DNA of 64,000 nucleotides. Origin: a bacterium (lineage in GTDB: Bacteria; Actinomycetota; CALGFH01). The stretch covers positions 1,440-65,439 of the forward strand of contig JBKPDO010000166.1 of the NCBI GenBank assembly GCA_046727955.1, in the 5' to 3' direction. This document shows, piece by piece, positions 10,109 through 29,499 of this stretch. Position 1 is the first letter of the stretch; every line of letters begins with the position of its first letter. Under the pieces are notes generated by a model. That model did not search any database and was not told the DNA's origin. It saw only the letters and a list, made by a program, of their open reading frames with translations. The position numbers and the translations under genes were made by a program.

Positions 10109-10650
10109 CGCGCCACGATACAGAAGCCGAGCGGACCGAAGCTGACCCGGTCGCCGGGGCGGGCGGGGACCGCGCCGGCGATGCGCCAGCCGTTGAGACG
10201 GGTCCCGTTGGTCGAGCCCAGGTCGACCAACAGCCACTCTTCGCCCTGACGGCGCAGCTCCGCGTGGTGGCGCGACACCGAAGGGTCGGCGAGCACCAGG
10301 TCGCAGTCCCTGGCGCGGCCGATGGTGAGCCGCTCGTGGCCGGCGGAGGGCAGCGCCAGGCGCGGAAGGCGTGGCCCCCGCCAGGCGGCCTGCAGTTGCG
10401 TGGTGAGCGTCGACAGCGCGAAGACGGTGTCGGTAAGCCGGCGGGCGACCCGTCCCTGCGGCGGCAGGTCGTCGAGCAGTGCCGCGAGCTCGCCGCGGCT
10501 GCGGGCGCGGAAGGCGAGGTCCAGGCGGCGCACGAAGGTGTCGAACGAGATCCGGCCCTCGACCGAGCGGTCGCGCAGGGCCCTGATGGCGCGCTCACGG
10601 TCCGCATCCGACACGCGCGTCGGAGGTGGTGTGTGCGCCTGCTCCGCCAT
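10105..10650 (-). CDS. DUF1707 + FHA domain protein
   Basis: RVSDADRERA (DUF1707); IGR, SVSRHHA, DLGSTNGT (FHA); ATGA overlap with AKR. Confidence 0.88.
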   Translation of the reverse strand: MAEQAHTPPPTRVSDADRERAIRALRDRSVEGRISFDTFVRRLDLAFRARSRGELAALLDDLPPQGRVARRLTDTVFALSTLTTQLQAAWRGPRLPRLALPSAGHERLTIGRARDCDLVLADPSVSRHHAELRRQGEEWLLVDLGSTNGTRLNGWRIAGAVPARPGDRVSFGPLGFCIVAR

Positions 10651-10706
10651 ACCTGGACATTCTTCCCGCGCCACCACGCCGTGTCCAGGGAGGGTTGCGG
10701 CGCCGC

Positions 10707-10940
10707 TCAGCGCTGGGCTTCTAGCTTGACGACCAGGTCGTCGATGAAGGCTGTGCGGGCCTCCGGAGCGGCGCCGGCGACCGCCATGCCGACCAGGTAG
10801 GCGGTCACTGGCGCGGCGCGGCGCTCCGACGCATGCGCCGCCACCCGAGCCAGCTCGAGAACCGCCTCGACCTCGTCCGCCCCCACGCTCGGCGCGTTCG
10901 GGCCGAGCAGTACGCGCACCTTGTCGATGAACTCCTCCAT
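10707..10940 (-). CDS. DUF6457 family protein
   Basis: VLELARVAAHASERRAAPVTAYLVG. Confidence 0.75.
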   Translation of the reverse strand: MEEFIDKVRVLLGPNAPSVGADEVEAVLELARVAAHASERRAAPVTAYLVGMAVAGAAPEARTAFIDDLVVKLEAQR

Positions 10941-11037
10941 GACCCGTCCTCCGGTTGGGAGGCTCCCCACCGCCCGCAAGATTAGCCCCTTCGTACAATG
11001 GCGTGGTGCCTTCCTTCACGACCCCGGTCGAGCGTCC

Positions 11038-11721
11038 ATGAAGCGACTGCTCCTGCTGCGCCACGCCTCCACCGAGCAGACGGGCAGGCGGCTCAGCGGC
11101 TGGACCCCGGGGATCCACCTGAGCGAGCAGGGTGTCCGGGAGGCGCAGGCGCTGGCCGAGCGGCTCGCGCCGCTGGAGATCCAGGCCGTCTACTCGAGCC
11201 CGCTGGAGCGCTGCCTGGAGACGGCCGCGGCCGTGGCGGAGCCACGCGGCCTCGGGGTCGAGACCGTCGAGGACGTCGGCGAGGTCCACTATGGCGAGTG
11301 GACCGGCAGGGAGCTGTCGGAGCTGGCCAAGCAGGAGCTGTGGCGGCTGGTCCAGCTGCACCCCTCGGGCGCGCGCTTCCCGGGGGGCGAGTCGATCCTG
11401 GAGATGCAGACCAGGGCGGTGGTCGCCTGCGAGCGGCTGCGGAGCGACCATTCCGGCGAGACCGTCGCCGTGTGCAGTCACGCTGACGTGATCAAGGCGG
11501 TCACCGCCCACTACCTCGGCATGCATCTGGACCTCTTCCAGCGGCTGGTGGTGGGCCCGGCCAGTGTGACCGCGCTGGGCTTCGGTCCGCTGCCGCACCT
11601 GCTGCGCCTCAACTCGATCGGCGACGAGCGCGACCTGCGCCCGCCCAAGGAGCCCGAGGAGCAGCCCGGGGAGCCCGGGGAGGGCGAGGAGCCCGAGGAG
11701 GGCGGCGATGGCACGGCGTGA
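11038..11721 (+). CDS. Histidine phosphatase, MSMEG_4193 family
   Basis: LLLRHA, SSPLERCLETA, VCSHADVIKA; followed by DUF3090 and SCO1664. Confidence 0.88.
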   Translation: MKRLLLLRHASTEQTGRRLSGWTPGIHLSEQGVREAQALAERLAPLEIQAVYSSPLERCLETAAAVAEPRGLGVETVEDVGEVHYGEWTGRELSELAKQELWRLVQLHPSGARFPGGESILEMQTRAVVACERLRSDHSGETVAVCSHADVIKAVTAHYLGMHLDLFQRLVVGPASVTALGFGPLPHLLRLNSIGDERDLRPPKEPEEQPGEPGEGEEPEEGGDGTA

Positions 11722-15337: not shown

Positions 15338-17278
15338 ATGCGCGCCACTGATCTTGCCCTGCTCCGCATTCCTAGCATGCCCACGCTATCGCCGGACGGT
15401 CGCCTGGTCGCAGTTGCGCTCACGCGCATCGACCTGGACTCGGACGCCTACCACAGCGAGATCTGGGTTGTGCCCAGCGACGGCTCTGCCCCGCCGAGCC
15501 GCTTCACCAACGGGCCAAGGGACAGCTGGCCTCGCTTCTCGCCTGACGGCCGCTGGCTCGCGTTCCTCCGCGCTGGCGAGGACGACGGCGCCAGGCCGCA
15601 GGTCCACGTCATGCCCGTGGACGGCGGTGAGCCGCGCCAGCTCTGCGAGCACCCCCTCGGCGCCGAGTCGATCGCGTGGAGCCCCGACTCCACCCGCATC
15701 GCCTACCTCGCGCGGATACCAGAGTCCGGGCGCTACGGCACGGCGGACGACGTGCCACCCTCCAAGGAGCCGCCGCGGCGCATCACCACCCTGAAGTTCC
15801 GCCTGGACAACGTCGGTTTCATCCTCGACCGCCGGCCGCACGTCTTCGTGGTCGACGCCCTCGCTGAGCGGCCTGAGCCGGTCCAGCTAACCCGTGGCGA
15901 CTTCGACCACGGCGACCCCGCCTGGAGTCCCGACGGCCGCCTGGTCGCCTTCGTCTCCGCCCGGCACCAGGACCGCGACTACGACGAGCTGTCCGACGTC
16001 TTCGTGGTGCCGGCCGAGGGCGGCGATGCGGTGCAGGTCACCCGCACCACCGTGCCGGCCAGCCGCCCGGCCTTCTCCCCGGACGGCCGGACGGTGTGGT
16101 TCTGCGCCCCCGCGACCGACGAGGCCGCGCGCAACGCCGGGCTGTGGTCGGTGCCGGCCGACGGCTCCGAGGCGCCGCGCAGGCTCACCGACGCCGAGCG
16201 CTGGGACGTGGACAACTTCCTATCGGGCGGGGTCCTGGACCTGCTGGTCGAGGACGACGCCGTGACCACGATCGTGCTCGAGCGCGGCGCCGTCCACCTG
16301 TACCGCTTCCCCAGGGACGGCGGCGAGCCGGCCTGCCTGCTCGGTGGCCCGCGGCAGGTGCAGGACTACGCGCACGCGGCCGGCGTGATCGCCGCCGTGG
16401 TCAGCGACGGCTCCACCGTCGGCGAGGTCGTCGTGCTGGATCACGGTCGGGAGCTGGTCGTGTCCGACTTCGGCGCGCTGCTGGCGCGCTCCGCCTCGCT
16501 GCGGCCGATGGTCGAGGTCAGCGGCACGGCGCCCGACGGCTATCCGGTGCACGGCTGGGTGGTCAAGCCCGCCGGCAAGGGGCCGTTCCCGGTGCTCCTC
16601 GTGATCCACGGCGGGCCCTTCGCCCAGTACGGCTACCGGCTGTTCGACGAGGCGCAGGTCTATGCCGGCGCCGGCTACGCCGTGGTGATGGGCAACCCGC
16701 GCGGCTCGGCGGGCTACGGCGAGGCCCACGGCCGGGCGATCGTCTTCGACAAGGGCAACCTCGACTCGGCCGACCTGCTCGCGCTGCTCGACGCCGCGCT
16801 GGCCGACCCGGAGCTGGACGGCGACCGCGTCGGAGTGCTCGGCGGCTCCTACGGCGGCTTCATGACCTCCTGGCTGGTCGGCCACACCGACCGCTTCCGC
16901 GCCGCGATCAGCGAGCGCGCCGTCAACGCGTTCGACAGCTTCGAGGGGTCCAGCGACATCGGCGCCAAGTTCCTCGAGGTCTACGTGGGCACTGACCCCG
17001 AGCGGGTCAAGGCGCAGAGCCCGCTGACCTACGCGGACAAGATCGAGACCCCGATGCTGCTGATCCACTCGGAGGAGGACTGGCGCTGCCCGCTGGAGCA
17101 GGCGCAGCGCCTGTTCGTCACGCTCAAGCTCCGCAGGGCCGAGGTCGAGATGCTGGTCTTCCCGGGCGAGGGCCACGAGCTCTCCCGCTCTGGCCTGCCA
17201 AGCCACCGCGTCGCCCGCTTCGAGGCCATCCTCGACTGGTGGGCCCGCCACCTGAACGGCGGCGTCACGGCAGGGTGA
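15338..17278 (+). CDS. S9 family peptidase with PD40 propeller
   Basis: SPDG repeats, HGGP, GGSYGG, HSEEDWRC, EGHEL. Confidence 0.93.
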   Translation: MRATDLALLRIPSMPTLSPDGRLVAVALTRIDLDSDAYHSEIWVVPSDGSAPPSRFTNGPRDSWPRFSPDGRWLAFLRAGEDDGARPQVHVMPVDGGEPRQLCEHPLGAESIAWSPDSTRIAYLARIPESGRYGTADDVPPSKEPPRRITTLKFRLDNVGFILDRRPHVFVVDALAERPEPVQLTRGDFDHGDPAWSPDGRLVAFVSARHQDRDYDELSDVFVVPAEGGDAVQVTRTTVPASRPAFSPDGRTVWFCAPATDEAARNAGLWSVPADGSEAPRRLTDAERWDVDNFLSGGVLDLLVEDDAVTTIVLERGAVHLYRFPRDGGEPACLLGGPRQVQDYAHAAGVIAAVVSDGSTVGEVVVLDHGRELVVSDFGALLARSASLRPMVEVSGTAPDGYPVHGWVVKPAGKGPFPVLLVIHGGPFAQYGYRLFDEAQVYAGAGYAVVMGNPRGSAGYGEAHGRAIVFDKGNLDSADLLALLDAALADPELDGDRVGVLGGSYGGFMTSWLVGHTDRFRAAISERAVNAFDSFEGSSDIGAKFLEVYVGTDPERVKAQSPLTYADKIETPMLLIHSEEDWRCPLEQAQRLFVTLKLRRAEVEMLVFPGEGHELSRSGLPSHRVARFEAILDWWARHLNGGVTAG

Positions 17279-18029
17279 GGACCTGGGGGCCGTCGGCGGT
17301 GATGGCGACGGTGTGCTCGAAGTGGGCCGAACGGGAGCCGTCGCGAGTGACCAGGGCCCAGCCGTCGGGCTTGACCCCGTAGGTGCCGCCGCCCTCGTTG
17401 AACATCGGCTCGATCGCGAGCACCAGCCCCTCGCGGAGCCGCAGCCCCCTTCCCGGGCGGCCGTCGTTCTGCACGCTCGGGTCCTCGTGCATGACCCGGC
17501 CGATGCCGTGACCGCCGAAGTCCGGCACGATGCCGTAGCCGGCCGCGTGCGCCACCAGCCCGACCGCGTGGCTGATGTCAGACAGGCGGTTACCGCCCCG
17601 GGCCTGCTCGATCCCGGCCCACAGGCCGCGCTCGGTGGTCTCCAGCAAGCGCCTGGCCGCCTCGTCGACCTCCCCCACCGGCACGGTGAGGGCGGCGTCG
17701 CCGTGGTAGCCGTCCACGATGGCGCCGCAGTCGATCGAGAGAACGTCGCCCTCGCGCAGGCGGTAGCGGTCAGGGATGCCGTGGACGATCACGTTGTTCG
17801 GCGACAGGCACAGCGTGCCTGGGAAGGGCGTCGGAGCGAAGCGGGGATGGTAGCCGAGGAACGAGGGCGTCGCGCCGTCGGCGCGGATCGTCTCCTCTCC
17901 CAGCGCGTCGAGCTCACGCAGGGACACACCGGGACGCACAGCGTCCTTGACCGCGGCCAGTGTGCGGGCGACGACGCGCCCCGCCTCCCGCATGGTCTCG
18001 ATCTCGTCACGTGACTTGAGGATGACCAC
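17265..18029 (-). CDS. map: Methionine aminopeptidase type I
   Basis: IVHGIP, DCGA, HGDAA, GHGIG, AIEPM, SAHFEHTV. Confidence 0.95.
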   Translation of the reverse strand: MVILKSRDEIETMREAGRVVARTLAAVKDAVRPGVSLRELDALGEETIRADGATPSFLGYHPRFAPTPFPGTLCLSPNNVIVHGIPDRYRLREGDVLSIDCGAIVDGYHGDAALTVPVGEVDEAARRLLETTERGLWAGIEQARGGNRLSDISHAVGLVAHAAGYGIVPDFGGHGIGRVMHEDPSVQNDGRPGRGLRLREGLVLAIEPMFNEGGGTYGVKPDGWALVTRDGSRSAHFEHTVAITADGPQVLTLP

Positions 18030-18228
18030 GACACGCTCCTGAGGATGACTGCCCACCGGGGTCTCGGGGTCGAGCCTACCGTAGCAAGGCGGCGGCCGGG
18101 CGGACTGCTCCTCCATGAACGACCCGCGATGGCCCAAACGCCGTGAAGATGTCCGAACTTCCCTGCCAGGTACGTGCTCGTGCCCGGTTTTTCTAATGAA
18201 TTCTACTGACTAGACAGGCTGGCACGTC

Positions 18229-18257
18229 TTGTGCTGTGAGAGAACGATCTCTATCAT
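18229..18257 (+). promoter_or_regulatory. Promoter (TTGTGC-17-TATCAT) with operator-like motif
   Basis: 18/23 identity with the 25762-25784 motif. Confidence 0.6.
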
Positions 18258-18301
18258 ACCCCGCAGACGCCACCCCCCTACGAGACCAGGAGGCGGACTG
18301 C

Positions 18302-19084
18302 ATGGACAGGACAGCACTCCAAAGGGCGAGGCCGCGGCGGGTCTTCTCCGCGGTGCTGGCGCTCGGCCTCGCGGCCCTGCTCGTGCCCGTGTGGGCGGGC
18401 GCGGCGGCGGCGCGCGAGAGCAGGAAGGCCGGCAGCTACCGCCTCGCCGTCGGGTTCGGGGACGAGCCCGCGTACGCCGGCCAGAAGAACAGCGCGCAGG
18501 TGCTCATCAGCGACGCCGCCGGCAAGCCAGTGACCGACCTCGGCGACACGCTGAAGGTCATGGTGATGATGGGCAAGCAGACCGTGGATCTCTCCCTGGA
18601 GCCGTTGTTCGAGGTCGGCGAGTTCGGGACGCCCGGAGACTACCGGGCGTTCTTCATCCCGAGCGCGCCGGGCAGGTACACCTTCCATCTCCATGGCAAC
18701 ATCAAGGGCCAGACGGTCAACCAGGACTTCACCTCCTCGCCCACGACCTTCTCGGACGTCCAGGACCCGGCACGCGCCGCCTTCCCCAAGCTGGACCAGC
18801 CGACCACCGGCCAGGTCGCCCAGCGCCTCGACCGCGAGGCGGCCCGGCTCGGCACCGCCGTGCAGGGCGCGATGGCGGCCAGCGGCAGCGCCGACCGGCG
18901 GTCGCGTGACACCGCCGGCCAGATCAGGCTGCTGACCATCATGGGTGCCATCGGGTTCATCCTCGGGCTGATGAGCGCGATCCTCGGTGGGAGCGCGCGG
19001 CGCATCGCACGGCGCGCGGCCCGCCGTGCCGCCCAGCCGCCGAGCGCTGAAGCTGAAGAGGTCCGCGCCACTGTGGAGGTCTGA
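18302..19084 (+). CDS. Secreted/membrane-anchored Ig-like (FixH/YtkA-like) protein typical of copper loci
   Basis: Signal peptide, YRLAVGFGDEPAYAG, PGDYRAFFIPSAPGRYTFHL, C-terminal TM helix; precedes a CopD remnant. Confidence 0.6.
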   Translation: MDRTALQRARPRRVFSAVLALGLAALLVPVWAGAAAARESRKAGSYRLAVGFGDEPAYAGQKNSAQVLISDAAGKPVTDLGDTLKVMVMMGKQTVDLSLEPLFEVGEFGTPGDYRAFFIPSAPGRYTFHLHGNIKGQTVNQDFTSSPTTFSDVQDPARAAFPKLDQPTTGQVAQRLDREAARLGTAVQGAMAASGSADRRSRDTAGQIRLLTIMGAIGFILGLMSAILGGSARRIARRAARRAAQPPSAEAEEVRATVEV

Positions 19085-19089
19085 CGCCG

Positions 19090-19647
19090 ATGTGGCGCAG
19101 GACGGCGGTGGCTGGCGTCCTGCTCAGCCAAAGGGCCACTGGCCAGACCAGGGTGTCGGCCCCCCCGGGCCACACCGAGGGCGCGGCGCCGGCGCGGTCG
19201 GGCGGCGCCGGATGGCTGTTCGCCCTCGGTGTGGCCTCCGGCGGCGGCCTGCTGGTGCATGCGCTGGCCAGCCACGCCGCCGCGCCCTCGCCGGTGCGCT
19301 GGCTGCGGCGGACGGTCCGCGGGGAGCTGCGGCGGACGGTCCGCGGGGAGCTGTGGCTCGCGGGCGAGGTGCTGCTCGCCGCCGCCCTGCTGAGCAAGCT
19401 ACCACCAGGCACAGACGTGGAGTCCCACGCGGCCGGCGCCACCGCCGCGGGGACCGGGCCGGCGGCCGCCCTCGGCCTGCAGGCGAACGGCACCGACTAC
19501 ACCACCACGGTGCGCGTAACCCTGCAGGCGACACCGGGCGCCGCCGGCCCCAATCGCTTCCTGGCCAATGTCGAGGGGCCTCCGAAGAGGTGACGGTGCC
19601 GCTGCGGCTCCAGGTTGCGGCCCCCGCAGTCCGCTAGAGCGGCGCCC
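19090..19647 (+). pseudogene. Internally deleted CopD-type copper resistance gene
   Basis: HALASHAAA and RGELWLAGEVLLAAALLSKLPP are CopD-like; RRTVRGEL duplicated at the junction; frameshifted tail EVTVPLRLQ. Confidence 0.6.
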
Positions 19648-19858
19648 GGCCCCGGGGCTGACCCGGACCCCGGGGCCGGGGCCGACCCGGTCCCGGGGCT
19701 TGACCCCAGACCCCGGGACCGGGCGGACGGCGAATCATCTCGCGGCGTTTCCGCGAAGCGACCGGCGTTCCATGGGCCACGGCCGCGGATCTGCCTACAG
19801 ACCATCGGGTCTCGGACGCGGATCGCCTGGCTGAACCCGGCCGAACATTCACAGCCGC

Positions 19859-19878
19859 CACTAATCCTTTGCTAATCG
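19859..19878 (+). promoter_or_regulatory. CTAATC direct repeats at 11-bp spacing (SARP-type site)
   Basis: ctaatc at 19861 and 19872, upstream of the SARP gene. Confidence 0.4.
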
Positions 19879-20090
19879 GACGGCCAGGACGCCTTTACAG
19901 TCCCGCGCATATTGCGCATAGACTTCTTGCGTAGGAAGCAAGGCAGGGCTGATCATCACGACGACCGTCCGAACCGCCGCGCGGCTGCGCCACCGATCCT
20001 GAGCCGCGGGAGTGCCGTCGACATGGCCAAGGCCGAAGACGCCCACACCAACCGGTCCGCGTTCCGCCACGCCCTCGGCGAGGCCGGGAG

Positions 20091-23000
20091 ATGACCTCGC
20101 CGGTCGACTTCCTGCTCCTCGGGCCGCTCGAGGCGCGCCAGGCCGGCCGCCCCCTGCGGCTCGGCAGCATCAAGCACCGCATGCTGCTGGCCAAGCTGCT
20201 GGTGCACGCAAACCAGGTCGTCTCCACCGACGAGCTGATCGACACCGTCTGGGGCGACCAGCCCCCGCCGACCGTTCGGCAGTCGCTGCAGAACCACGTC
20301 GCCTCGCTCCGCAGGGCGATCGAGCCCGGCAGCGTCGCCAACCCACCCCGAACGCTGCGCACCCGCGACCCCGGCTACCTGCTGCAGGTCGATCCGGACC
20401 AGCTCGACCTGCACCGCTTCCGCCGGCTGCTCGACGAGGGCCGCGGCGCGCTCGATTCCGGCGAGCCGGCCACGGCGGTGCGGCTGCTGCACGAGGCCCT
20501 GTCGCTGTGGCGCGGCCCGGTCCTGGCCGACGTCGTGGCCGCCGGGGCGGCCTGGCCCGAGCTGGTCGGCATCGACGAGGAGCGGGTCGCGGCGCTCGAG
20601 GTGCGGCTCGAGGCCGACCTCACCCTCGGGCGTCACCCCGATCTGATCGGCGAGCTAGAGGGCCTGGTCCAGGTGCACCCGCTGCGCGAGCACCTGCACG
20701 GGCAGCTCATGCTCGCGCTGTACCGCTCTGGCAGACAGGCGGACGCGCTGGCCGCCTACCGGGCCGCCCGCCGCATCCTCGTCGACGAGCTCGGCATCGA
20801 GCCGAGCCTGCGCCTGCAGCGGCTGGAGCAGGCGATCCTCGCCCAGGACCCGGCGCTCGAGCTGCTCGGCCCGTCCGCGGCCGAGGCCGAGCCCGGGATC
20901 CTGGCGCTCGACCGGGCTGCGGCCGGCGAGCCCGCCAGGGCGGCCGCGCCCGGCGGGGCCGAGCGCAAGCTGGTCACCGTGCTGTTCGCCGAGGTCGACG
21001 AGCCGGCTGCCGAGCCAGGCGAGCGCGACCCCGAGGACGTCTCCAGCATGCTCGAGCGGCATCTCGAGCGGATGCACACCGAGATCTTCAGCTTCGGCGG
21101 GGTGGTAGAGCACGCCATCGGCGGCACCATGATGGCCGTCTTCGGCGTGCCACAGACCCGCGAGGACGACCCCGAGCGCGCCGTGCGCGCGGCGCTGGCC
21201 ATCCGCGACGCGCTGAGCGGCCGGGCGGAGCTGCGCATCGCGGTCGGCACCGGCGAGGCGCTCGTCACCCCTGGCGGCGGGCCCACGCGGGTCGCCGGCG
21301 ACCTGGTCACCGCCTGCGCCCGCCTGCAGCAGGCCGCCCCCGCCGGCGCGGTGCTGGTCGCGGAGGCGACCGAGCGCGCCACTTCGCGGACGATCAGCTA
21401 CGGGCCGGCGACCATGCTCGTGCTGCCCGGCCGCGCCAAGCCCGTGACCGTGTGGAGCGCGCTGGAACCGCGCAACCGCACCGGGCTCGAGACGCTCGCC
21501 GCCCGCCCGGTGCCGCTGATGGGACGGGCACGGGAGCTCGGCGCCCTGCTAGAGGCGTTCGAGCGGGTCCGGTCCACCGGCAGCCCGCGGCTGGTGACCC
21601 TGGTCGGACCGGCGGGCATCGGCAAGAGCCGCCTGCTGGCGGAGCTGTGGCAGTCGCTGGAGGCCGACCGCGACCTGGTCGCCTGGCGCCAGGGCCGCTC
21701 GCCGCCCTACGGCGAGGGGATCACCTTCTGGGCGCTCGGCGAGATCATCAAGGCAGAGGCCGGCATCCTCGAGAGCGACACCACCGACCGCATCGACCGC
21801 AAGCTCGCGCAGGCGGCCAGCTACGCCCTGGCAGGGATCCCGGACGCGGCCGCCTGGGTCACCGCGCACCTGCGCGTGCTGCTCGGCGGCAGCGACGAGC
21901 GCTCGCAGCCGCGGGCGGGCCGCCAAGAGGAGGCGTTCGCCGCCTGGCGGCGCTTCCTGCACGGCCTGGCCACCCGCCGTCCGCTGGTGCTGGTCGTCGA
22001 GGACCTGCACTGGGCCGACGACGCCCTGCTGGAGTTCCTCCAGAGCCTGCTCGACGGCGCCGGCAGCCCGCCCGGCTCACTGCCGCTGCTGCTGGCCACG
22101 ACCACGCGGCCGGAGCTGCTGGAGCGCCGGCCCGGCTGGGGCGGCAGCGGCCCGTCGACCACCATCAGCCTCGAGCCACTGCCGCGGGACGACACCGTCC
22201 GCCTACTCGGGGCACTGCTCACCCACCACCGGCTGCCCGGCGCGGTCGCGCCCCGCCTGGCCGCCGCGGCGGGCGGCAACCCGCTGTTCGCCGAGGAGTA
22301 CGTGCGCATGCTGCGCGACCGCGGGCTGCGCACCGAGGAGCTGAAAAACGCGGCGGCGGGCGAGCCGCCGGCGATGGGGGCGCCCGAGCTGCCGCTGCCG
22401 GAGACCGTGCACGCGATCGTCGCCGCCCGCCTGGACGCGCTCTCCGTGGCCCAGAAGGCGGTGCTGCACGACGCCGCCGTCCTCGGCCGGATCGCCTGGA
22501 CAGGTGGCCTGGCGGCCGTGGGTGACCACGACCGCGACAGTCTGCAGGCCTGCCTCGACCACCTCGAGGCCAAGGAGTTCCTCTACCGGGCACGCCGCTC
22601 CTCGGTGGCCGGAGAGCCGGAGTACGGCTTCCGGCACGTGCTCATCCGCGACGTGGCCTACGGCCAGATCCCGCGGGCGCAGCGGGCCGACAAGCACCGC
22701 CGGGCCGCGGCCTGGCTCGAGTCGCTGTCAGCCGACCGCGTCGAGGAGCGGTCCGAGCGGCGCGGGGCCGCCCGCGCGGAGCTGCTGGCCCACCACTACG
22801 GCAGGGCGCTCGCCTTCGCTCACGCCTCGGGTCAGCCCAGTGACGAGCTGGCCACGCACACCCGCCTGGCGCTGCGCGACGCCGCCGACAGGGTGACCGC
22901 GCTTGGCGTGCATGCCACCGCCGCCCGCTACTACGCCCGCGCCCTCGAGCTGTGGCCGGAGCGCGACCCCGGCCACGCCGAGCTCGAGTTCCGCACCGGC

Positions 23001-24242
23001 CGCGCCCTCTACCACAGCGAGGGCAGCGGGGAGAAGCTGCTCGCACGAGCGCGCGACGGGCTGCTTGCCGCCGGCGACTTCGAGCGCGCGGCCGAAGCCG
23101 ATATCCTGCTCGGCCAGCACGCCTGGGAGCACGGCCAGCACGGCGCGGGCGATCACGTCGAGCGGGCCGTGGCCCTGGTAAAGGACGCGCCGGCATCGCG
23201 CTCCAAGGCCGCGGTGCTGCGCGGCCGCATGATGCACTCGATGGTCGCCGAGCACCACACCGAGGCGATCGCGCTCGCCCGTCAGCTCCTGGAGATGGCG
23301 GTCCAGCTCGGCATGCTGGACATCGAGGCCGCCGCGCTGGAGGTGATCGGCGGCGCCAAGGTGCTCGGCAGCGGCGATCCCAGCGGGGTGGCCGACCTGG
23401 AGCGCAGCATTGCCATCTACGAGCAGCTCCCCTCCCTCAACCCGGCCGGCGCGTACATCAACCTGGCCGAGATGCTTGCGGCGCTCGGCGACCTGCCGCG
23501 CTGCTTCGCCACCTGGGCAGCCGCCTGGCGGTGCGTAGAGCGCTTCAGCGTCGAGCACCGGCTGCGCTGGATGGAGTTCGAGCGCGTGGCCGAGCACTAC
23601 TGGACCGGGCGCTGGGACGAGGCGCTGCGCAAGGTCGAGTCGCTGGTCGCCGAGTCGGCGGCCGCGCGCGGGCACGTCCTGGAGTGCCGCTGCCTCATCT
23701 GGCGCGGCCGTATCCGCCTGGCCCGCGGCGAGACATCGATGGCCGTGGCCGACTCGGTCGCCGCGCTCGAGCTGGCCCGGGCTTCCGGTGAGCCGCAGGA
23801 CCTGGACCCCGCGCTGGCTTTCGGCGCCCGCGCCCTGCTCGCCGCCGACCGGGCCGAGGACGCCGTCCCGCTGGTCGACGAGCTGGTGAAGGTCGTGGAC
23901 GGGCGGCTGCTCAAGGCGACAGTCGGCAGCGACCTGTCGCTTGCGCTGGTCGCCCTGAACTATCCGGTCGAGGCCCTGGACGGCGTGCTGCCGTCACGCT
24001 GGCTGGAGGCCGCTCGCGCTCTGCTGGCCGGCGACATGCGGCGGGCGGCTCAGCTCTATGCCGCCATCGGCTCGCGCCCGGACGCGGCCGCGGCCCACCT
24101 GGCCGCCGCGCGCCAGCTGACGGCCGCGCGCGAGGCCGGTGCCAGCAGGTCAGAGCTGGCCGCCGCCCTCGGCTTCTACCGCGAGGTCCGCGCGAGCGCC
24201 TATCTCCAAGAGGCCGAGGACCTGCTGTTCTCCCTGGTCTGA
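20091..24242 (+). CDS. SARP (wHTH-BTAD) + cyclase-like + AAA/STAND ATPase + TPR regulator
   Basis: LLGPLEA, LREHLHGQLMLALYRSGRQADAL, ERKLVTVLFAE, GPAGIGKSRL, VVEDLHWAD, TPR-like helical tail. Confidence 0.92.
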   Translation: MTSPVDFLLLGPLEARQAGRPLRLGSIKHRMLLAKLLVHANQVVSTDELIDTVWGDQPPPTVRQSLQNHVASLRRAIEPGSVANPPRTLRTRDPGYLLQVDPDQLDLHRFRRLLDEGRGALDSGEPATAVRLLHEALSLWRGPVLADVVAAGAAWPELVGIDEERVAALEVRLEADLTLGRHPDLIGELEGLVQVHPLREHLHGQLMLALYRSGRQADALAAYRAARRILVDELGIEPSLRLQRLEQAILAQDPALELLGPSAAEAEPGILALDRAAAGEPARAAAPGGAERKLVTVLFAEVDEPAAEPGERDPEDVSSMLERHLERMHTEIFSFGGVVEHAIGGTMMAVFGVPQTREDDPERAVRAALAIRDALSGRAELRIAVGTGEALVTPGGGPTRVAGDLVTACARLQQAAPAGAVLVAEATERATSRTISYGPATMLVLPGRAKPVTVWSALEPRNRTGLETLAARPVPLMGRARELGALLEAFERVRSTGSPRLVTLVGPAGIGKSRLLAELWQSLEADRDLVAWRQGRSPPYGEGITFWALGEIIKAEAGILESDTTDRIDRKLAQAASYALAGIPDAAAWVTAHLRVLLGGSDERSQPRAGRQEEAFAAWRRFLHGLATRRPLVLVVEDLHWADDALLEFLQSLLDGAGSPPGSLPLLLATTTRPELLERRPGWGGSGPSTTISLEPLPRDDTVRLLGALLTHHRLPGAVAPRLAAAAGGNPLFAEEYVRMLRDRGLRTEELKNAAAGEPPAMGAPELPLPETVHAIVAARLDALSVAQKAVLHDAAVLGRIAWTGGLAAVGDHDRDSLQACLDHLEAKEFLYRARRSSVAGEPEYGFRHVLIRDVAYGQIPRAQRADKHRRAAAWLESLSADRVEERSERRGAARAELLAHHYGRALAFAHASGQPSDELATHTRLALRDAADRVTALGVHATAARYYARALELWPERDPGHAELEFRTGRALYHSEGSGEKLLARARDGLLAAGDFERAAEADILLGQHAWEHGQHGAGDHVERAVALVKDAPASRSKAAVLRGRMMHSMVAEHHTEAIALARQLLEMAVQLGMLDIEAAALEVIGGAKVLGSGDPSGVADLERSIAIYEQLPSLNPAGAYINLAEMLAALGDLPRCFATWAAAWRCVERFSVEHRLRWMEFERVAEHYWTGRWDEALRKVESLVAESAAARGHVLECRCLIWRGRIRLARGETSMAVADSVAALELARASGEPQDLDPALAFGARALLAADRAEDAVPLVDELVKVVDGRLLKATVGSDLSLALVALNYPVEALDGVLPSRWLEAARALLAGDMRRAAQLYAAIGSRPDAAAAHLAAARQLTAAREAGASRSELAAALGFYREVRASAYLQEAEDLLFSLV

Positions 24243-24243
24243 G

Positions 24244-24385
24244 GGCTTGTTTGCATTCGGGGGGGAGCCCGAGACAGCTCCCCCCCGAACCCCCCACCGG
24301 GCACCTCGACGTGACCCCTGGGTCGGGGGTCAGCACCGCGATCGGGCAGGGTCGCCGTGCCGCGGATCACCATTGCAACCAGGCC
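24244..24385. mobile_element. MITE-like element, copy A (one internal unit)
   Basis: Ends ggcttgtttgca...tgcaaccaggcc; body closely similar to 42062-42367; inserted at the SARP stop codon. Confidence 0.75.
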
Positions 24386-24559
24386 CCGAGGCGTGCGCTG
24401 CCTCGCGCCGTCGCCAGAGCCAGTCCGCTTGAGGCCCAGATGGGGGACATTGCGTAGGTAGTTCTTGCGAGGTGCACTCAGGACCCATGGGGAGTACAAC
24501 TGGCTGAGAGAGATCGATACCACTCTCTTGTCGAACCGGTCAGAGGAAGGCTGGACCAT

Positions 24560-25126
24560 ATGCCTGAGACGCCTCGCGAACGGCTTCTCGAGACGGCCAC
24601 GAACCTCCTGTACAGGGAGGGCATCCAGACCGTCGGGATCAACCGTATCGTCGCCGAGGCGGAGGTGGCGCTCATGACCCTCTACCGCCAGTTCGGGGAC
24701 AAGGACAACCTGGTCGCCGCTGCGCTCGAGCACTGGAGCACGCAGTGGCTGCACTGGCTCGCCGACCACGTCGACCGCCGCGGCGACGATCCCGAGGCCC
24801 GCTTCGCTGGCCTGTGGGACGCGCTCGAGGAGTGGTTCACGAGCGAGGGCTTCCGCGGCTCCTTCATCGCCAGCGCCGCTGTCGAGCTGCGCGGCGAGCC
24901 GGAGCACCCCGCACACCGAGTGATCGAGGGACATCGGCTGGCAATGCGGCACCTGCTGGAGGATCTCGCCAAGGCCGCCGGGGCGCGCGACCCGGACGAG
25001 CTGGCGACCCATCTGCAGGTGATCGTCGACGGCGCCACCTCTGTCGCCATGGTCGACCGCACGCCCACCCCCGCTCGCAATGCGCGCGCGCTGGCCGGCG
25101 CGGCGCTGGCGGTGAGCGCCAGCTAG
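24560..25126 (+). CDS. TetR/AcrR family regulator (NemR/ComR-like)
   Basis: RERLLETATNLLYREGIQTVGINRIVAEAEVALMTLYRQFGDKDNL. Confidence 0.93.
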   Translation: MPETPRERLLETATNLLYREGIQTVGINRIVAEAEVALMTLYRQFGDKDNLVAAALEHWSTQWLHWLADHVDRRGDDPEARFAGLWDALEEWFTSEGFRGSFIASAAVELRGEPEHPAHRVIEGHRLAMRHLLEDLAKAAGARDPDELATHLQVIVDGATSVAMVDRTPTPARNARALAGAALAVSAS

Positions 25127-25563
25127 CGCCGGCCAGCGTGGCGGCCGCCCTCGCTGCTGGCCGACAGCGCCACCAGCGTCAGGTGCCGAGCGATGCGCGC
25201 CACCGCCGGCTGGCGGTCGATCAGCGCGCCGACCACGGCGCCCTCGTAGAGCACCTGGAGCTGGCTGGCCAGCGTGGCGGGATCGTGCACACCCGCCGAG
25301 CTGGCAAGGCCCTCGAGCAGGTGCCGCAGCGAGCGGCGCTGCTCGGCCACGGCCTGGTGGGCCGGATCGGCGGCGTCGCGCAGCTCTGGCGCGGCGCCCG
25401 CCAGGAACGACCCGTCGAAGTCGTCGCTGGCGAACCATTCCTCGAGCACGTCCCAAAGGGCGAGCAGGCGCTCCGTGGGCGTGTCACCGCGGCGGTCGAG
25501 CTCCTCGGCGAGCCACTCGGGCCAGTCCCCACGGGTGGGCTCCTCTACCTCGTCTCGTCTCAC
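25123..25563 (-). CDS. TetR C-terminal-domain-only protein (no HTH), paralog of the adjacent TetR
   Basis: RBS aaggggagagg + GTG; WLAEELDRRGD/LWDVLEEWF/LASQLQVL align with the TetR C-domain; stops overlap at CTAG. Confidence 0.8.
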   Translation of the reverse strand: MRRDEVEEPTRGDWPEWLAEELDRRGDTPTERLLALWDVLEEWFASDDFDGSFLAGAAPELRDAADPAHQAVAEQRRSLRHLLEGLASSAGVHDPATLASQLQVLYEGAVVGALIDRQPAVARIARHLTLVALSASSEGGRHAGRR

Positions 25564-25753
25564 CCTCTCCCCTTGGGCCGATGAGTCGGTAGGAGCCGGG
25601 CGGTCCCAGCAAATCTGTCAAGGCTCGCTTCATCGTCGTATTCCAGGAGCGTCGGCGCAAGACCGTACAGCCGAACAGATGACTCAGAGACCGGCACCGG
25701 CGCCCAAGTGGGGATAGTTTCCCGAAATTTTGCTTCCACGTCATGAAATACTC

Positions 25754-25784
25754 TTGACAGATGATAGAGAGAGATCGCTATCAT
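25754..25784 (+). promoter_or_regulatory. Promoter TTGACA-19-TATCAT with palindrome atgatag-N10-ctatcat
   Basis: Read directly, upstream of the small ORF at 25837. Confidence 0.7.
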
Positions 25785-25836
25785 TACCCATTCGCGCCGG
25801 CTGGGAGACCGGCGGTGGAGGAAAGGGAGGCCCCCC

Positions 25837-25959
25837 ATGCGCGACTCCAAGCACTGGCCCATCCGCTTCGTGCGGTACGCGTACCTGACGGTGATTTCCA
25901 TGGGCGCCGCCGCGCTCCTGGTCGCGGGCTTCAGCCAGCCCAACTGGATGTGGTGGTGA
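25837..25959 (+). CDS. Unannotated 40-aa single-TM peptide (MRDSKHWPIRFVRYAYLTVISMGAAALLVAGFSQPNWMWW)
   Basis: Strong RBS ggaggaaagggagg, own promoter, GC3-rich codons; below the ORF-track cutoff. Confidence 0.7.
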   Translation: MRDSKHWPIRFVRYAYLTVISMGAAALLVAGFSQPNWMWW

Positions 25960-26062
25960 CATCCGGCCATCTTGAAGTCCGAGGTGGCGGCCCCAACGGG
26001 CCGCCACTCGGCGTTCCGGCCCATCCGCCCACGCTCCCGGCCCATCCGCCCACGGTGACCCG

Positions 26063-26133
26063 CGAAGACCTCCCTTGAGCACGTCCCTCGAAGACCTCCC
26101 CCTCGAAGACCTCCCCCTCGAAGACCTCCCCCT
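26063..26133. repeat. Tandem repeat 15 bp x3 (cgaagacctccccct) plus one degenerate copy
   Basis: Read directly; upstream of the second STAND gene. Confidence 0.9.
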
Positions 26134-26214
26134 GGCTGGACCGACGACCTAGGCTTGTAGGCTGCAAGGGCTGCAAGCCACGTCCGCCGCAGAAGCTGTC
26201 ACCGAGGGACGCAA

Positions 26215-29200
26215 TTGGCCGATCCCCAACCGCCCGGCGAACAGCCGAGCCACGCCGAGCGCAAGCTCGTCACCGTGCTGCTCGCCGAGGTCGACGAGGC
26301 GGCCGGGAGCTGGGACGAGCCCGACCCCGAGGACGTCGACTGGGCGCTCACCGGGCACGCCGCTCGGGTCCATGACCAGGTCCGTCGCTTTGGCGGCGTG
26401 GTCGAGCACCGGCTCGGCGGCCGCACCCTGGCGGTGTTCGGGCTGCCGCGGACCCGCGAAGACGACCCCGCGCGGGCGGTGCTGGCCGCGCTTGCGATCC
26501 GCGACGCCCTCGGCGGCCCCGCCGGCGCCGCGCGGCCGCGCCTGGCGGTCTCGACCGGCATGGCGCTGGTACGGCTCGGCGGGCAGGTCCCCAGCGGCCA
26601 GCGCGTGCTCGGCGATCCCATCGCTATCTGCGCGCGCCTGCTCGAGGTGGCCCCGCCGGGCGCCGTGCTGGTGACCGAGCCGACCCTGCGCGCCAGTGAG
26701 CGCGCCATCCCCTACGGCCCGGCCAGCCTGGTGACCCTTCGCGGCGGGGAGCCACAGGCGGTGTGGAGCCCGCTCGCCATCTCGCCGCCCGGCCAACGCC
26801 GCTTCCCGCCGCTGGTGGCCCGGGACGCCGAGCTGGCCATTCTGGTCGAGCGGCTGGCGCAGGCGCGCTCGGCCCGCTCGCCGCGGCTGGTGACCCTGCT
26901 CGGGGCGGCGGGCATGGGCAAGAGCCGCCTGCTGGCCGAGCTGGCGGCGGCCGTCCAGGGCGGCCCCGAGCTGGTCGCCTGGCGCCAGGGTCGCTCTTCT
27001 CCGTACGGCGCGATGGCGCTCGGACCGCTCGCCGAGGTCGTCAAGGCCGAGGCCGGGATCCTCGAAAGCGACAGCGCCCAGGAGGTGGAGCGCAAGCTGC
27101 TCGCCACCGCCGAGCGGGTGCTGGACGGTCATAGCGCGGACGTAGGCCGCACCGCCACCCACCTGCTCACGCTAGTTGGGGCCAGCGCGGCGGGCAGCGA
27201 CACGGCCCAGGTTCAGCTGGACGACGGCGACCGCCGCGAGGAGATGCTCGCGGCCTGGCGCCGCTTTCTCTATGCCCTGGCGGTCAGGCGCCCCCTGGTG
27301 CTCGCGATCGAGGACGCCCACTGGGCCGGCGACGCGCTGCTCGACTTCCTCGAGAGCCTGGTCGACCCGGAGATCGCGGCGCAGGCGGGCCCGACGGCGC
27401 TGCTGGTGGTCGTCACCGCCCGACCGGAGCTGGCCGAGCGCCGGGCTGGCTGGGGGCTTGCCGAGAAAGGCGTCGGCAGCGTGGTCCGGCTCGAGCCGCT
27501 GCCCCCCTCCGCCATCGCCGGGCTGCTGGCGGCCCTGCTGGAGCACCATGGCCTGAGCGGGCGAGGGCGGACCGCCCCGGAACTGCTCGAGCGGGTCGGC
27601 GGCAATCCGCTGTTTGCCGAGGAGTACGTGCGCATGCTGCGCGACCGCGGGCTGCGCACCGAGGAGCTGAAAAACGCGGTCGCGGGCGAGCCGCCGGCGA
27701 TGGGGGCGCCCGAGCTGCCGCTGCCGGAGACCGTGCACGCGATCATCGCCGCCCGCCTGGACGCGCTGCCATCTGACGAGAAGGCGGTGCTGCAGGACGC
27801 GGCCGTCCTCGGCCAGGTCGGCTGGGTGGGCGCGCTGGCCGAGATCGGCGAGCGCGAGCGCGCCACCCTTCAGGCGCGGCTGCTGCGGCTGGAGAGCAGG
27901 GAGCTGCTGCAGGTGAGCGACCGCTCCCAGGTCGCCGGCGAGGTCGAGTACGCCTTCCGCAACGTGCTGGTGCGGGACGTGGCCTACGACCAGACCCTCC
28001 GCGCCGACCGGGCACGCAAGCATCTCAAGGTGGCGACCTGGCTGGAGCGGCTCGGCGGCGACCGCGCTGGCGAGCGTGCCGACCTGCTCGCCTATCACTA
28101 CCGCGCCGCACTGGACCTGGGCCGCGCGGCCGGGCTCCAGGTGCCTGGCCTCCAGCTGCGGGCCAGGGCCGCGCTGCGCGAGGCCGGCGACCGCGCCGCC
28201 GCCCTTGGTCTGCACGCAAGTGCCGCCCGCGCCTACACCGAGGCGGTGGGGCTGTGCGCGCCCGATCCCAGAGATCCCGAGCGGCCCGCCCTGCTGCTGC
28301 GGCTCGGCCGGGCTCGCTGCCGCGCCGAGGGCGCCGGCGAGGAGGAGCTGAGCGCCGCGCGGGACCTGTTCCTCGCCAGGGACGAGCCGGTGCCCGCTGC
28401 GGAGGCCGAGATGCTCCTCGGCGAGCTGGCGTTCCTCGGCGGGCGCGGCGACGAGCGCGCGGCGCGGCTGGATCGCGCGCTTGCGCTGATCGGCGGCGCG
28501 GCGCCATCGCCCACCAAGGCCGCGGTGCTGCGCGGCTGCATGTTCCACCTCGCCATGGCCAACCGGCACGCTGAGGCGCGGGCGGTGGCGGCCGAGGTCC
28601 TCGAGCTGGCGCGCCAGCTCGGCCTGCGGGACTTCGAGGCGGACGCGCTCGGGACCATCGGGCTGGCGCGGGTCGACGCCGGCGACCCAGGCGGTGTGGC
28701 CGACCTGTCGGCCGCTATCGCCGCCTTCGACGCGCTCGGCACGTCCGGATCGGTCGCCTGGCACCTGAATCTGGCCTATGCGCTGGCTGCGCTGGGCGAC
28801 CTCGCCGGCTGCCACGCCGAGCTGGCGGCGGCCGCGCGCGGCGCCGAGCGCTTCGGCCTGCTGCGCGCCGCCCGCGCGATCAGGCTCCAGCGGGTCGCGG
28901 AGTACTACTGGACCGGTCGCTGGGACGAGGCGGTCGCGGTGGTCGACGTGTTGGTGGCCGGCTCGCCCGGGGAGGAGCGCCACTACCTGGAATGGGAGTG
29001 CCGGCTGTGGCGGGGCCGCATCCGCCTGGCCCGCGGCGACCTGGACGGGGCGCTGGCCGATTCGGTGAGGGCTCTGGAGCTTGCGCGCCGCGCGGCCGAC
29101 CTGATGGCGCTCAACCCCGCCCTTGCCTTCCGGACGAGCGTCCTGCTTGCCGCGGGCCAGGTGCCGGAGGCTCGCGAGGCGGTCGCCGAGCTGCTGGCGA

Positions 29201-29499
29201 GCCTGGGCGGCAGCGTGCTGGCGCCGGAGATCGGCGCCGACCTGGGCAATGCCCTGGCAGCCCTGGGTCTGGGGACCGAGGTGCTCGATGAACGCGGCAT
29301 CCCGCCGTCGCCCTGGCTGGAGGCGACCAGGGCACTGGCCAGCGGCAGGCCGGACCGCGCCGCCGAGCTGTACGACCGCATCGGGGCTGTCCCCGAGGCA
29401 GCCACTGCGTGGAGAGGCGGGGGGACTCCGAACCGCGGAGGGACCCAGGCCCCCCCGCGAACCCCCCCAGGGGGGGCGGGCTCTGCCCGCGATTCCTAG
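26215..29499 (+). CDS. Cyclase-like + AAA/STAND ATPase + TPR protein, paralog lacking the SARP head
   Basis: ERKLVTVLLAE, GAAGMGKSRL, IEDAHWAG, GNPLFAEE; C-terminus runs into a G/C-rich repeat. Confidence 0.88.
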   Translation: MADPQPPGEQPSHAERKLVTVLLAEVDEAAGSWDEPDPEDVDWALTGHAARVHDQVRRFGGVVEHRLGGRTLAVFGLPRTREDDPARAVLAALAIRDALGGPAGAARPRLAVSTGMALVRLGGQVPSGQRVLGDPIAICARLLEVAPPGAVLVTEPTLRASERAIPYGPASLVTLRGGEPQAVWSPLAISPPGQRRFPPLVARDAELAILVERLAQARSARSPRLVTLLGAAGMGKSRLLAELAAAVQGGPELVAWRQGRSSPYGAMALGPLAEVVKAEAGILESDSAQEVERKLLATAERVLDGHSADVGRTATHLLTLVGASAAGSDTAQVQLDDGDRREEMLAAWRRFLYALAVRRPLVLAIEDAHWAGDALLDFLESLVDPEIAAQAGPTALLVVVTARPELAERRAGWGLAEKGVGSVVRLEPLPPSAIAGLLAALLEHHGLSGRGRTAPELLERVGGNPLFAEEYVRMLRDRGLRTEELKNAVAGEPPAMGAPELPLPETVHAIIAARLDALPSDEKAVLQDAAVLGQVGWVGALAEIGERERATLQARLLRLESRELLQVSDRSQVAGEVEYAFRNVLVRDVAYDQTLRADRARKHLKVATWLERLGGDRAGERADLLAYHYRAALDLGRAAGLQVPGLQLRARAALREAGDRAAALGLHASAARAYTEAVGLCAPDPRDPERPALLLRLGRARCRAEGAGEEELSAARDLFLARDEPVPAAEAEMLLGELAFLGGRGDERAARLDRALALIGGAAPSPTKAAVLRGCMFHLAMANRHAEARAVAAEVLELARQLGLRDFEADALGTIGLARVDAGDPGGVADLSAAIAAFDALGTSGSVAWHLNLAYALAALGDLAGCHAELAAAARGAERFGLLRAARAIRLQRVAEYYWTGRWDEAVAVVDVLVAGSPGEERHYLEWECRLWRGRIRLARGDLDGALADSVRALELARRAADLMALNPALAFRTSVLLAAGQVPEAREAVAELLASLGGSVLAPEIGADLGNALAALGLGTEVLDERGIPPSPWLEATRALASGRPDRAAELYDRIGAVPEAATAWRGGGTPNRGGTQAPPRTPPGGAGSARDS

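Follow-up and report, generated by a model that had tools for sequence, protein, structure and literature searches.

As a rule, transcription regulators of the TetR family repress genes adjacent to their own by binding palindromic sequences in the promoters (PMC3511530, PMC4482099). A TetR regulator encoded less than 200 bp from a divergently oriented gene represses that gene by binding a palindrome located there (PMC3511530), and palindromic motifs are present upstream of conserved, divergently oriented tetR genes of mycobacteria (PMC4482099). We analyzed a 64-kb stretch of DNA from a soil actinomycete (contig JBKPDO010000166.1, positions 1,440 to 65,439; 71.5% GC), referred to below as the window, which carries an island containing a gene of this family (tetR). 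Three similar sites, designated S1, S2 and S3, are located in this island upstream of a gene for an exported YtkA-like envelope protein, a gene for a membrane peptide of 40 amino acids (aa) and tetR itself, respectively. We consider it likely that they constitute operator copies of the local TetR-family repressor, which belongs to an actinobacterial subfamily without a characterized member.

The sites had been described in an earlier note made from the sequence alone. Reading of the sequence, supported by a script, confirmed their positions (Table 1), their identities (18/23 between S1 and S2, i.e. 5 mismatches; 15/21 between S3 and S2, with 6 mismatches across an extended 23-mer) and their placement before the envelope protein gene, the peptide gene and tetR, where they end 45, 53 and about 34 nucleotides (nt), respectively, upstream of the ATG codon. 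The overlap of S1 and S2 with the hexamer TATCAT, a putative -10 element, was also confirmed. The TAGA-N8-TCTA palindrome suggested in the note is correct, but it is a loose and partial view of a longer one: a single 22-bp palindrome, composed of the halves TGATAGAGATC and GATCTCTATCA around the inner core AGAG-N6-CTCT, fits S1, S2 and S3 alike, the last of these in a better register found by the script. Scored against the idealized palindrome TGATAGAGATCGATCTCTATCA, S1 and S2 contain 3 mismatches each and S3 contains 6, while the runner-up among approximately 128,000 positions of the window contains 7. S1 and S2 retain 8 of the 11 symmetric pairs and form palindromes in the size range of about 15-30 bp, with perfect outer arms (TGATAG/CTATCA) in S2. 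In S3, almost all of the mismatches lie within the right half, and only the left half conforms to the palindrome.

The possibility, raised in the same note, that the motif is frequent in random intergenic DNA was not borne out in the window: a 20-mer derived from S1 and S2, with up to 3 mismatches allowed, matches 2 sites, compared with 0.02 expected from 100 shuffles. A weight matrix constructed from 23 sites of other loci (none from the window) returned S1, S2 and S3, in this order, as the top three loci, with scores of 39.0, 38.0 and 18.8 bits (S3 on the minus strand; 14.1 bits on the plus strand), versus 10.0 bits for the best unrelated position. The 23 outside sites yield a pseudo-palindromic consensus, TG(A/n)(G/T)AGAGA(G/T)C followed by GATCTCTATCA, whose right half is conserved better than the left. 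Measured from centre to centre, its inner AGAG/CTCT arms are 10 bp apart and its outer GATAG/CTATC arms 15 bp apart. A chance likeness of AT-rich, GA-rich promoter DNA might be suspected, as the intergenic DNA of the window is AT-richer than average, GA/TC runs permit several registers and the fit of S3 is moderate. In view of the shuffles, the separation of the three sites from the rest of the window by an outside matrix, and the adjacency of TetR homologs to hits of a 19-mer pattern expected only about 6e-5 times per genome (see below), such an explanation is hardly credible, and for S1 and S2 it is already contradicted.

This arrangement resembles the Tn10 TetR/tetO system in that a TetR-family dimer is proposed to occupy a palindromic operator overlapping a promoter, with copies at the promoters of both the regulator and its targets (clearest in four loci of other actinobacteria, L040, L086, L050 and L108, described below). 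The 9-bp arm TGATAGAGA is identical to the tetO half-site of Tn10. In the window it occurs, as TGATAGAGA or its counterpart TCTCTATCA, at positions 18248-18256 and 25762-25770, everted relative to the dyad when compared with tetO. The order of the arms is TGATAGAGA-N4-TCTCTATCA here and TCTCTATCA-N-TGATAGAGA in tetO, and the site is longer (22 bp versus 15-19 bp). Moreover, TetR(B/D) is no close relative of TetR of the window and is absent from its PDB hits at E < 1e-5, and the proposed targets comprise a small peptide and an envelope protein instead of an efflux pump. The identity of the half-sites is a probable coincidence. The literature on the motif strings, including TGATAGAGATC, concerns mostly Tet-system or engineered constructs, several of them clearly Tet-responsive, and contains no natural actinobacterial operator.

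A palindrome of more than usual length that overlaps a promoter, and whose outer and inner elements could hold two dimers, is also known from QacR and its operator IR1, which differs in length (28 bp) and shows no sequence relationship to the element described here. The KstR, KstR2 and BkaR regulons of mycobacteria (PMC4482099) are similar in another respect, since they too comprise an actinobacterial TetR-type regulator whose conserved palindrome occurs at a small number of promoters in its vicinity and can be recovered by comparative genomics. They represent a different subfamily (with TetR of the window, the KstR model of NCBIfam reaches 24 bits, against a cutoff of 280) and a different motif sequence. 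The solved structures nearest to TetR (3g7r and 3jsj) are those of uncharacterized regulators, and every homolog named in its source is called merely "TetR/AcrR family transcriptional regulator" or similar.

Homologs with 61-95% identity to TetR are numerous in soil metagenomes, and 16 loci surrounding nine of them were taken for comparison. All of the fetched loci retain a module composed of (i) a SARP-STAND regulator, (ii) TetR, (iii) a TetR_C protein lacking the helix-turn-helix (HTH) domain, (iv) the small peptide and (v) a second STAND protein (STAND-2). In the closer relatives this module is joined to an operon of the ytkA-like gene and copCD, the latter of full length. In distant relatives, a Prim-Pol gene is located directly upstream of the SARP-STAND gene, replacing ytkA-copCD (L014, 3942-4718; L015, 5057-5773; L016, 3922-4959). 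Matches to the palindrome with up to 5 mismatches are confined in the orthologous loci to intergenic promoter regions. The motif precedes the ytkA-like gene in every locus possessing that gene, and it is kept at both the ytkA-like and the peptide promoter in loci whose TetR is 65-95% identical. In an alignment of the ytkA intergenic region from six lineages, 25 of the 30 columns from the -35 to the -10 element are invariant, as opposed to 6 of 100 upstream; the DNA upstream of the -35/operator/-10 block is not alignable. The S1 site recurs in 16 high-GC metagenome matches, beside homologs of the M24 peptidase and the YtkA-like protein.

A motif-like site (3-7 mismatches) is likewise present upstream of the peptide gene in every relative in which this gene was found. 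The location of the gene varies: (i) in L001 (9577-9702), L003 (9495-9620) and L008 (9463-9585) it is encoded by the minus strand and separates the SARP-STAND gene from tetR; (ii) in L014 (plus strand, about 9720-9830) and L015 it is flanked by two copies of tetR; and (iii) in the window, L006, L009, L011, L013 and L016 it follows the HTH-less paralog. Where the peptide gene is gone from its place before STAND-2, a motif-bearing promoter remnant persists (L003, 11185; L008, 11244; L014, 11142). Sites identical or nearly identical to S2 precede peptide gene homologs in L008, L136, L137, L141, L154 and L163, and in L006 the 22-mer of S2 appears as its exact reverse complement, with the flanks in a similar orientation. 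Such an inversion would be anticipated for an element read by a symmetric dimer, but not if the promoter alone matters.

The varied places and orientations of the peptide gene and its promoter, together with the resemblance of the S1 and S2 flanks (CTTG upstream, TACCC downstream), could also indicate that the two sites are a duplicated promoter cassette which moves with the peptide gene, and that they are alike through common descent. We regard this as very improbable, since the block is retained down to 65% TetR identity while the intergenic DNA around it can no longer be aligned, the palindrome survives the internal inversion in L006, and elsewhere the element stands before unrelated genes (for an enoyl-CoA hydratase or a metallo-beta-lactamase-fold protein), always with a TetR homolog.

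The latter observation comes from a scan of 185,579 species genomes with the pattern AGAGANNGATCKCTATCAT, which returned neither the genome of the window nor its close relatives. From base composition, the 19-mer pattern is expected about 6e-5 times per 8-Mb high-GC genome; the scan gave 108 hits, about the chance number, spread over all phyla. A tblastn comparison of the island proteins with the 108 loci (769 kb) revealed TetR-like sequences in only five, and in all five the nearest TetR-like copy lies 17-231 nt from the motif. These loci originate from Mycolicibacterium rhodesiae (L040), a Mycobacterium metagenome-assembled genome (MAG; L086), an Actinomycetota MAG (L050), Nocardioides sp. 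(L108) and a MAG labelled Magnetospirillum (L094). The motif-adjacent proteins share 32-37% identity with TetR of the window, the HTH region (EGI..VG[IV]NR....EA....M[ST]LYR.FGSK) being far more conserved than the ligand domain. At four of the five target promoters the motif occupies the spacer of a TTGnnn-17-TATCAT arrangement. The downstream genes are unrelated to those of the window, and those identified include an enoyl-CoA hydratase (ECH) gene with a thiolase or CoA-transferase gene. The four actinobacterial loci carry a further copy of the motif at the tetR promoter, and in these distant tetR promoters TATCAT, TATCCT or TATACT lies 6 nt ahead of the start codon, and this lack of a leader independently marks the operator arm as the -10 element.

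The reverse test gave a consistent result. Two homologs were picked by protein sequence alone, and in both cases the best matrix match was found at the promoter or intergenic region of the tetR operon. In Hoyosella subflava (L170), the best match in 6.6 kb (30.0 bits) corresponds to TTGACG-N17-TATCAT, 28 nt ahead of the first gene in an ECH-thiolase-tetR operon. In a metagenome locus whose regulator is 49% identical to the mycobacterial protein (L171), the best match (23.9 bits; ATAGAGA-GTAG-TCTCTAT) is placed between tetR and a metallo-beta-lactamase gene. Regulator and site therefore co-occur across genomes irrespective of the target genes (5/5 and 2/2 loci). A Nocardia contig encoding a TetR homolog also contains two motif hits.

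A metagenome-wide scan with the pattern TGNNAGAGANNGATCNCTATCAT returned 45 hits, 24 from high-GC and 21 from low-GC DNA. Among the high-GC hits, 22 are located in this island, at the ytkA-like and peptide promoters, and two lie outside it. No TetR homolog was detected by tblastn at the 21 low-GC hits, and the five of these that were examined by open reading frame (ORF) are unrelated to TetR and mostly situated inside long ORFs. The low-GC hits were dismissed as noise and serve as an internal negative control.

The same conserved block could instead be a promoter for a particular sigma factor, or a site of another regulator of the island such as the SARP-STAND protein, with TetR as a mere neighbour. 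The most invariant part of the element (GATCTCTATCAT) includes the -10 hexamer, the right half is conserved better than the left, a SARP-type DNA-binding domain is encoded nearby, and further conserved blocks are present upstream (TTCTAATGAATTCTACTGAC at 18191-18210; GAAATTTTGCTTCCACGTCATGAAAT near 25720-25748). A conserved palindromic spacer combined with a variable -35 element (TTGTGC, TTGACA, TTGATT, TTGGCA or TAGACA) is, however, the reverse of a sigma factor signature, and the motifs of Mycobacterium, Nocardioides and Hoyosella adjoin TetR homologs. No SARP or STAND homolog was found by tblastn in the motif-scan loci (L017-L124), nor in the gene tables of L170 and L171. SARPs, in addition, bind direct repeats and not palindromes. 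We therefore judge both forms of this explanation to be quite improbable.

At both proposed target promoters the operator would fill the spacer between the -35 and -10 elements, with its right arm CTATCAT itself providing the -10 element. The TTGnnn-17/19-TATCAT pattern was recognized by eye at S1 and S2, and TATCAT is invariant in the orthologs. The TTGTGC hexamer of the ytkA-like promoter, 17 nt upstream of TATCAT, is unchanged in six orthologous loci, while the peptide promoters of relatives have TTGATT, TTGGCA, TAGACA or TTGTAG at 16-18 nt. Soil runs labelled RNA-Seq yielded 2-4 kb contigs of a related strain that extend across the intergenic DNA and are uninformative on transcription starts. 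If TetR is the repressor of these genes, the mechanism would most probably be the classical one, in which dimers bound to the spacer and -10 element of two strong promoters block RNA polymerase and some ligand releases TetR from its operators and causes derepression. Transcription from these promoters is predicted to start near 18264 and 25791. The inner core AGAG-N6-CTCT sets its arms one helical turn apart, which would suit one dimer. The outer GATAG/CTATC arms may be chiefly the -10 element and its symmetry-related context, or may accommodate a second dimer.

Two further features were noted close to these promoters. Just upstream of the -35 hexamer at S1 is a 10-bp direct repeat, TTCTAATGAA/TTCTACTGAC (18191-18210), whose second unit is conserved in relatives; it resembles CTAATC-N5-CTAATC upstream of the SARP-STAND gene (19868-19890) and may be an activator (SARP) site, i.e. 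a second input to the ytkA promoter. The block GAAATTTTGCTTCCACGTCATGAAAT (25720-25748), upstream of the -35 hexamer at S2, is conserved in L003, L006, L008, L009 and L013.

S3 differs from the other two sites in several respects. The block GGAGTACAACT preceding it, which may be the -10 region for tetR, is identical upstream of tetR in all relatives carrying this layout (TetR 69-95% identical), where it is followed after 0-6 nt by a GAGAG-rich element. In L009, L013, L014 and L016 this element is a clean AGAG-N6-CTCT palindrome whose geometry matches that of the inner core in the 22-mer. The window shares with L001, L008, L136, L141 and L154 the 21-mer TGAGAGAGATCGATACCACTC, in which the left half is perfect and the right half poor, and which remains unchanged in four different flank contexts. 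S3 is probably a conserved functional element and a weaker operator, as judged from this pattern of conservation; a half-symmetric copy of lower affinity, placed just downstream of GGAGTACAACT, would provide weak autoregulation. A role at the RNA level was also considered and rejected, as the AGAGAG...CTCTCT hairpin is not kept in L008, L136 and L141; no Rfam match was found in the region 18000-26300 at E <= 1.

Upstream of this promoter, the window contains a 153-bp insert (24245-24397) between the stop codon of the SARP-STAND gene and the tetR promoter. A closely related strain in the soil runs lacks it, as its contigs join position 24244 to 24398 via CGTGTGGA. In run X1, the word depth of the insert is approximately 15-fold above that of its neighbours.

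Several observations weigh against the assignment of the three sites to TetR. A consensus sigma-70 scanner calls no promoter at S1, S2 or S3. S1 and S2 are missed because TTGTGC matches the consensus at only 3 of 6 positions and the 19-nt spacer is beyond the range of the scanner, and since neither is called, the two promoters are to be regarded as putative. One dimer could not contact the outer arms, 15 bp apart, in the same way as the inner core, and within 200 bp of tetR the window contains no target gene in divergent orientation. S3 is asymmetric, with 10 nt instead of 6 between the arms AGAGAG/CTCTCT, and L003 and L006 have other GAGAG-rich sequences at its position. The proposal of a shared TetR operator, put forward in the earlier note, is sustained by the conservation in orthologous loci, the recurrence of the motif beside TetR proteins of other genera and the protein-first test. 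It holds less well for S3, which is half-symmetric and differs in some close relatives; the operator role of S3 is the least secure of the three, and autoregulation of tetR can be claimed with less certainty than control of the ytkA-like and peptide promoters.

Table 1. Predicted operators, putative promoter elements and genes of the island (positions refer to the window)
Feature	Position	Strand	Sequence	Remarks
M24 methionine-aminopeptidase-type gene	17265-18137	-		
-35-like hexamer, ytkA-like gene promoter	18229-18234	+	TTGTGC	putative
S1, 23-mer	18235-18257		TGTGAGAGAACGATCTCTATCAT	
Operator S1	18235-18256	.	TGTGAGAGAACGATCTCTATCA	predicted operator
TATCAT overlapping S1	18252-18257		TATCAT	putative -10
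YtkA-like envelope protein gene	18302-19084	+		260 aa, exported; proposed target 1; Pfam YtkA E 0.0036, below cutoff
CopC-CopD remnant	19090-19593	+		167 aa, decayed; tblastn similarity to CopCD regions of relatives
SARP-BTAD/cyclase-like/STAND regulator gene	20091-24242			
Invariant block before S3	24491-24501	+	GGAGTACAACT	possible -10 region of tetR promoter
S3, 21-mer	24503-24523		GCTGAGAGAGATCGATACCAC	
Site S3, better register	24505-24526	.	TGAGAGAGATCGATACCACTCT	good left half-site, degenerate right half
tetR	24560-25126	+		188 aa; proposed binder; Pfam TetR_N E 2.5e-10, 40.4 bits vs cutoff 24
HTH-less paralog of TetR C-terminal domain	25123-25563	-		TetR_C_13 E 2.9e-7, no TetR_N
-35 hexamer, peptide gene promoter	25754-25759	+	TTGACA	putative; 19-nt spacer
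S2, 23-mer	25762-25784		TGATAGAGAGAGATCGCTATCAT	
Operator S2	25762-25783	.	TGATAGAGAGAGATCGCTATCA	predicted operator
TATCAT overlapping S2	25779-25784		TATCAT	putative -10
Membrane peptide gene	25837-25959	+		40 aa (MRDSKHWP...QPNWMWW); proposed target 2; called ORFs of 40-84 aa and tblastn hits in relatives
STAND-2 gene	26215-29499			

TetR is the sole protein of the island with a TetR_N (HTH) domain. The HTH-less paralog encoded next to it is 51% identical to residues 63-187 of TetR and was found in all relatives examined. Upstream of its gene (25590-25690, minus strand) is a conserved coding-like segment, ...LLEYDDEAxLDxFAxTxRF..., which in L013 is in frame with the HTH-less gene (10576-11250, an ORF of 224 aa), and in the window, L006 and L009 is in another frame. 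The segment was discarded as an HTH remnant because no HTH was recognizable, in any frame, in the DNA between the paralog and S2; it may represent an N-terminus displaced by a frameshift, or else a small ORF of its own.

The KHWP motif of the peptide is conserved in the relatives in which it was read. A GC-rich hairpin directly follows the stop codon of the peptide gene (about 25983-26011), ahead of a perfect tandem repeat of three 15-bp units (CCCTCGAAGACCTCC, 26085-26133) located between this gene and STAND-2. The CopC-CopD remnant ORF gave no Pfam match and is followed, within the region 19090-20090, by a GC-rich, repetitive non-coding stretch of about 500 bp. In relatives (L006-L013), a full CopC-CopD gene encoding 562-629 aa, with Pfam CopC and CopD hits, follows the ytkA-like gene.

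A different wiring may be envisaged, in which the SARP-STAND protein, TetR, the HTH-less paralog of its ligand/dimerization domain, the peptide and the second STAND ATPase form a conserved signalling module, in place of a simple repressor released by a ligand, and the paralog enters one-headed heterodimers with TetR. Such heterodimers could not hold the full palindromes of the targets, which would lead to derepression, and might still occupy the conserved half-site upstream of tetR. In that case the everted, tetO-like arms would point to a binding geometry uncommon for a TetR protein. We consider this wiring unlikely, though the paralog, as a member of the module, may modulate the repressor.

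A repressor beside copper-type envelope genes brings to mind ComR of Escherichia coli and the YcnK/CsoR-controlled ycnJ (CopC-CopD) of Bacillus subtilis, the more so as the target operon of the relatives comprises the ytkA-like gene and copC-copD. The likeness to ComR/NemR-type regulators claimed in the earlier note did not hold, since neither model is among the NCBIfam matches of TetR at E <= 0.01; these comprise DicD/YjdC, BetI, CurR and others, none of which comes near its cutoff. The sequence of TetR contains no cysteine with which copper or electrophiles could be sensed; in distant relatives RGC takes the place of the RGS found in the lineage of the window. Unlike in the copper systems, copCD of the window is decayed, and the same operator and TetR subfamily are found elsewhere beside genes for fatty-acid or metallo-beta-lactamase-fold proteins. 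In the absence of cysteine and of a ComR-like family assignment, with copCD decayed and other targets in other genera, a link between TetR and copper is unproven, and none of the findings speaks for copper or redox sensing.

The view that one small regulon spans the island agrees with the data for the window, and may have to be widened for one relative. A 72-kb contig from the same study series (L153, 300-420) contains, outside the island, a TTGACC-N17-TATCAT promoter with TGAGAGAGAGCGATCACTATCA, which precedes a Cys/Trp-containing ORF of 57 aa and is divergent from a gene whose product, by its N-terminal sequence alone, is likely to be a solute-binding lipoprotein. It looks like a real promoter, and the regulon may have further members in some relatives.

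The locus is well supported, on comparative grounds, as a predicted instance of the TetR/tetO paradigm in which both the operator sequence and the subfamily are new, and as an ordinary kind of small local regulon; the current understanding of TetR regulators is unchanged by these findings. The analysis assigns a specific predicted operator to a TetR subfamily with a wide distribution among soil Actinobacteria and in Mycobacterium, Nocardia, Nocardioides and Hoyosella. Among proteins with an overall identity of 32-37%, the DNA-binding head and the operator appear to stay constant while the ligand domain and the targets change. An operator arm that doubles as the -10 element would make a compact repressible promoter, which could serve as a part in high-GC hosts. 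Finally, in this uncultured lineage the copper-type envelope operon and the gene for a small, conserved peptide of the membrane are tied to what is probably a single repressor, which may offer a handle for finding its signal.

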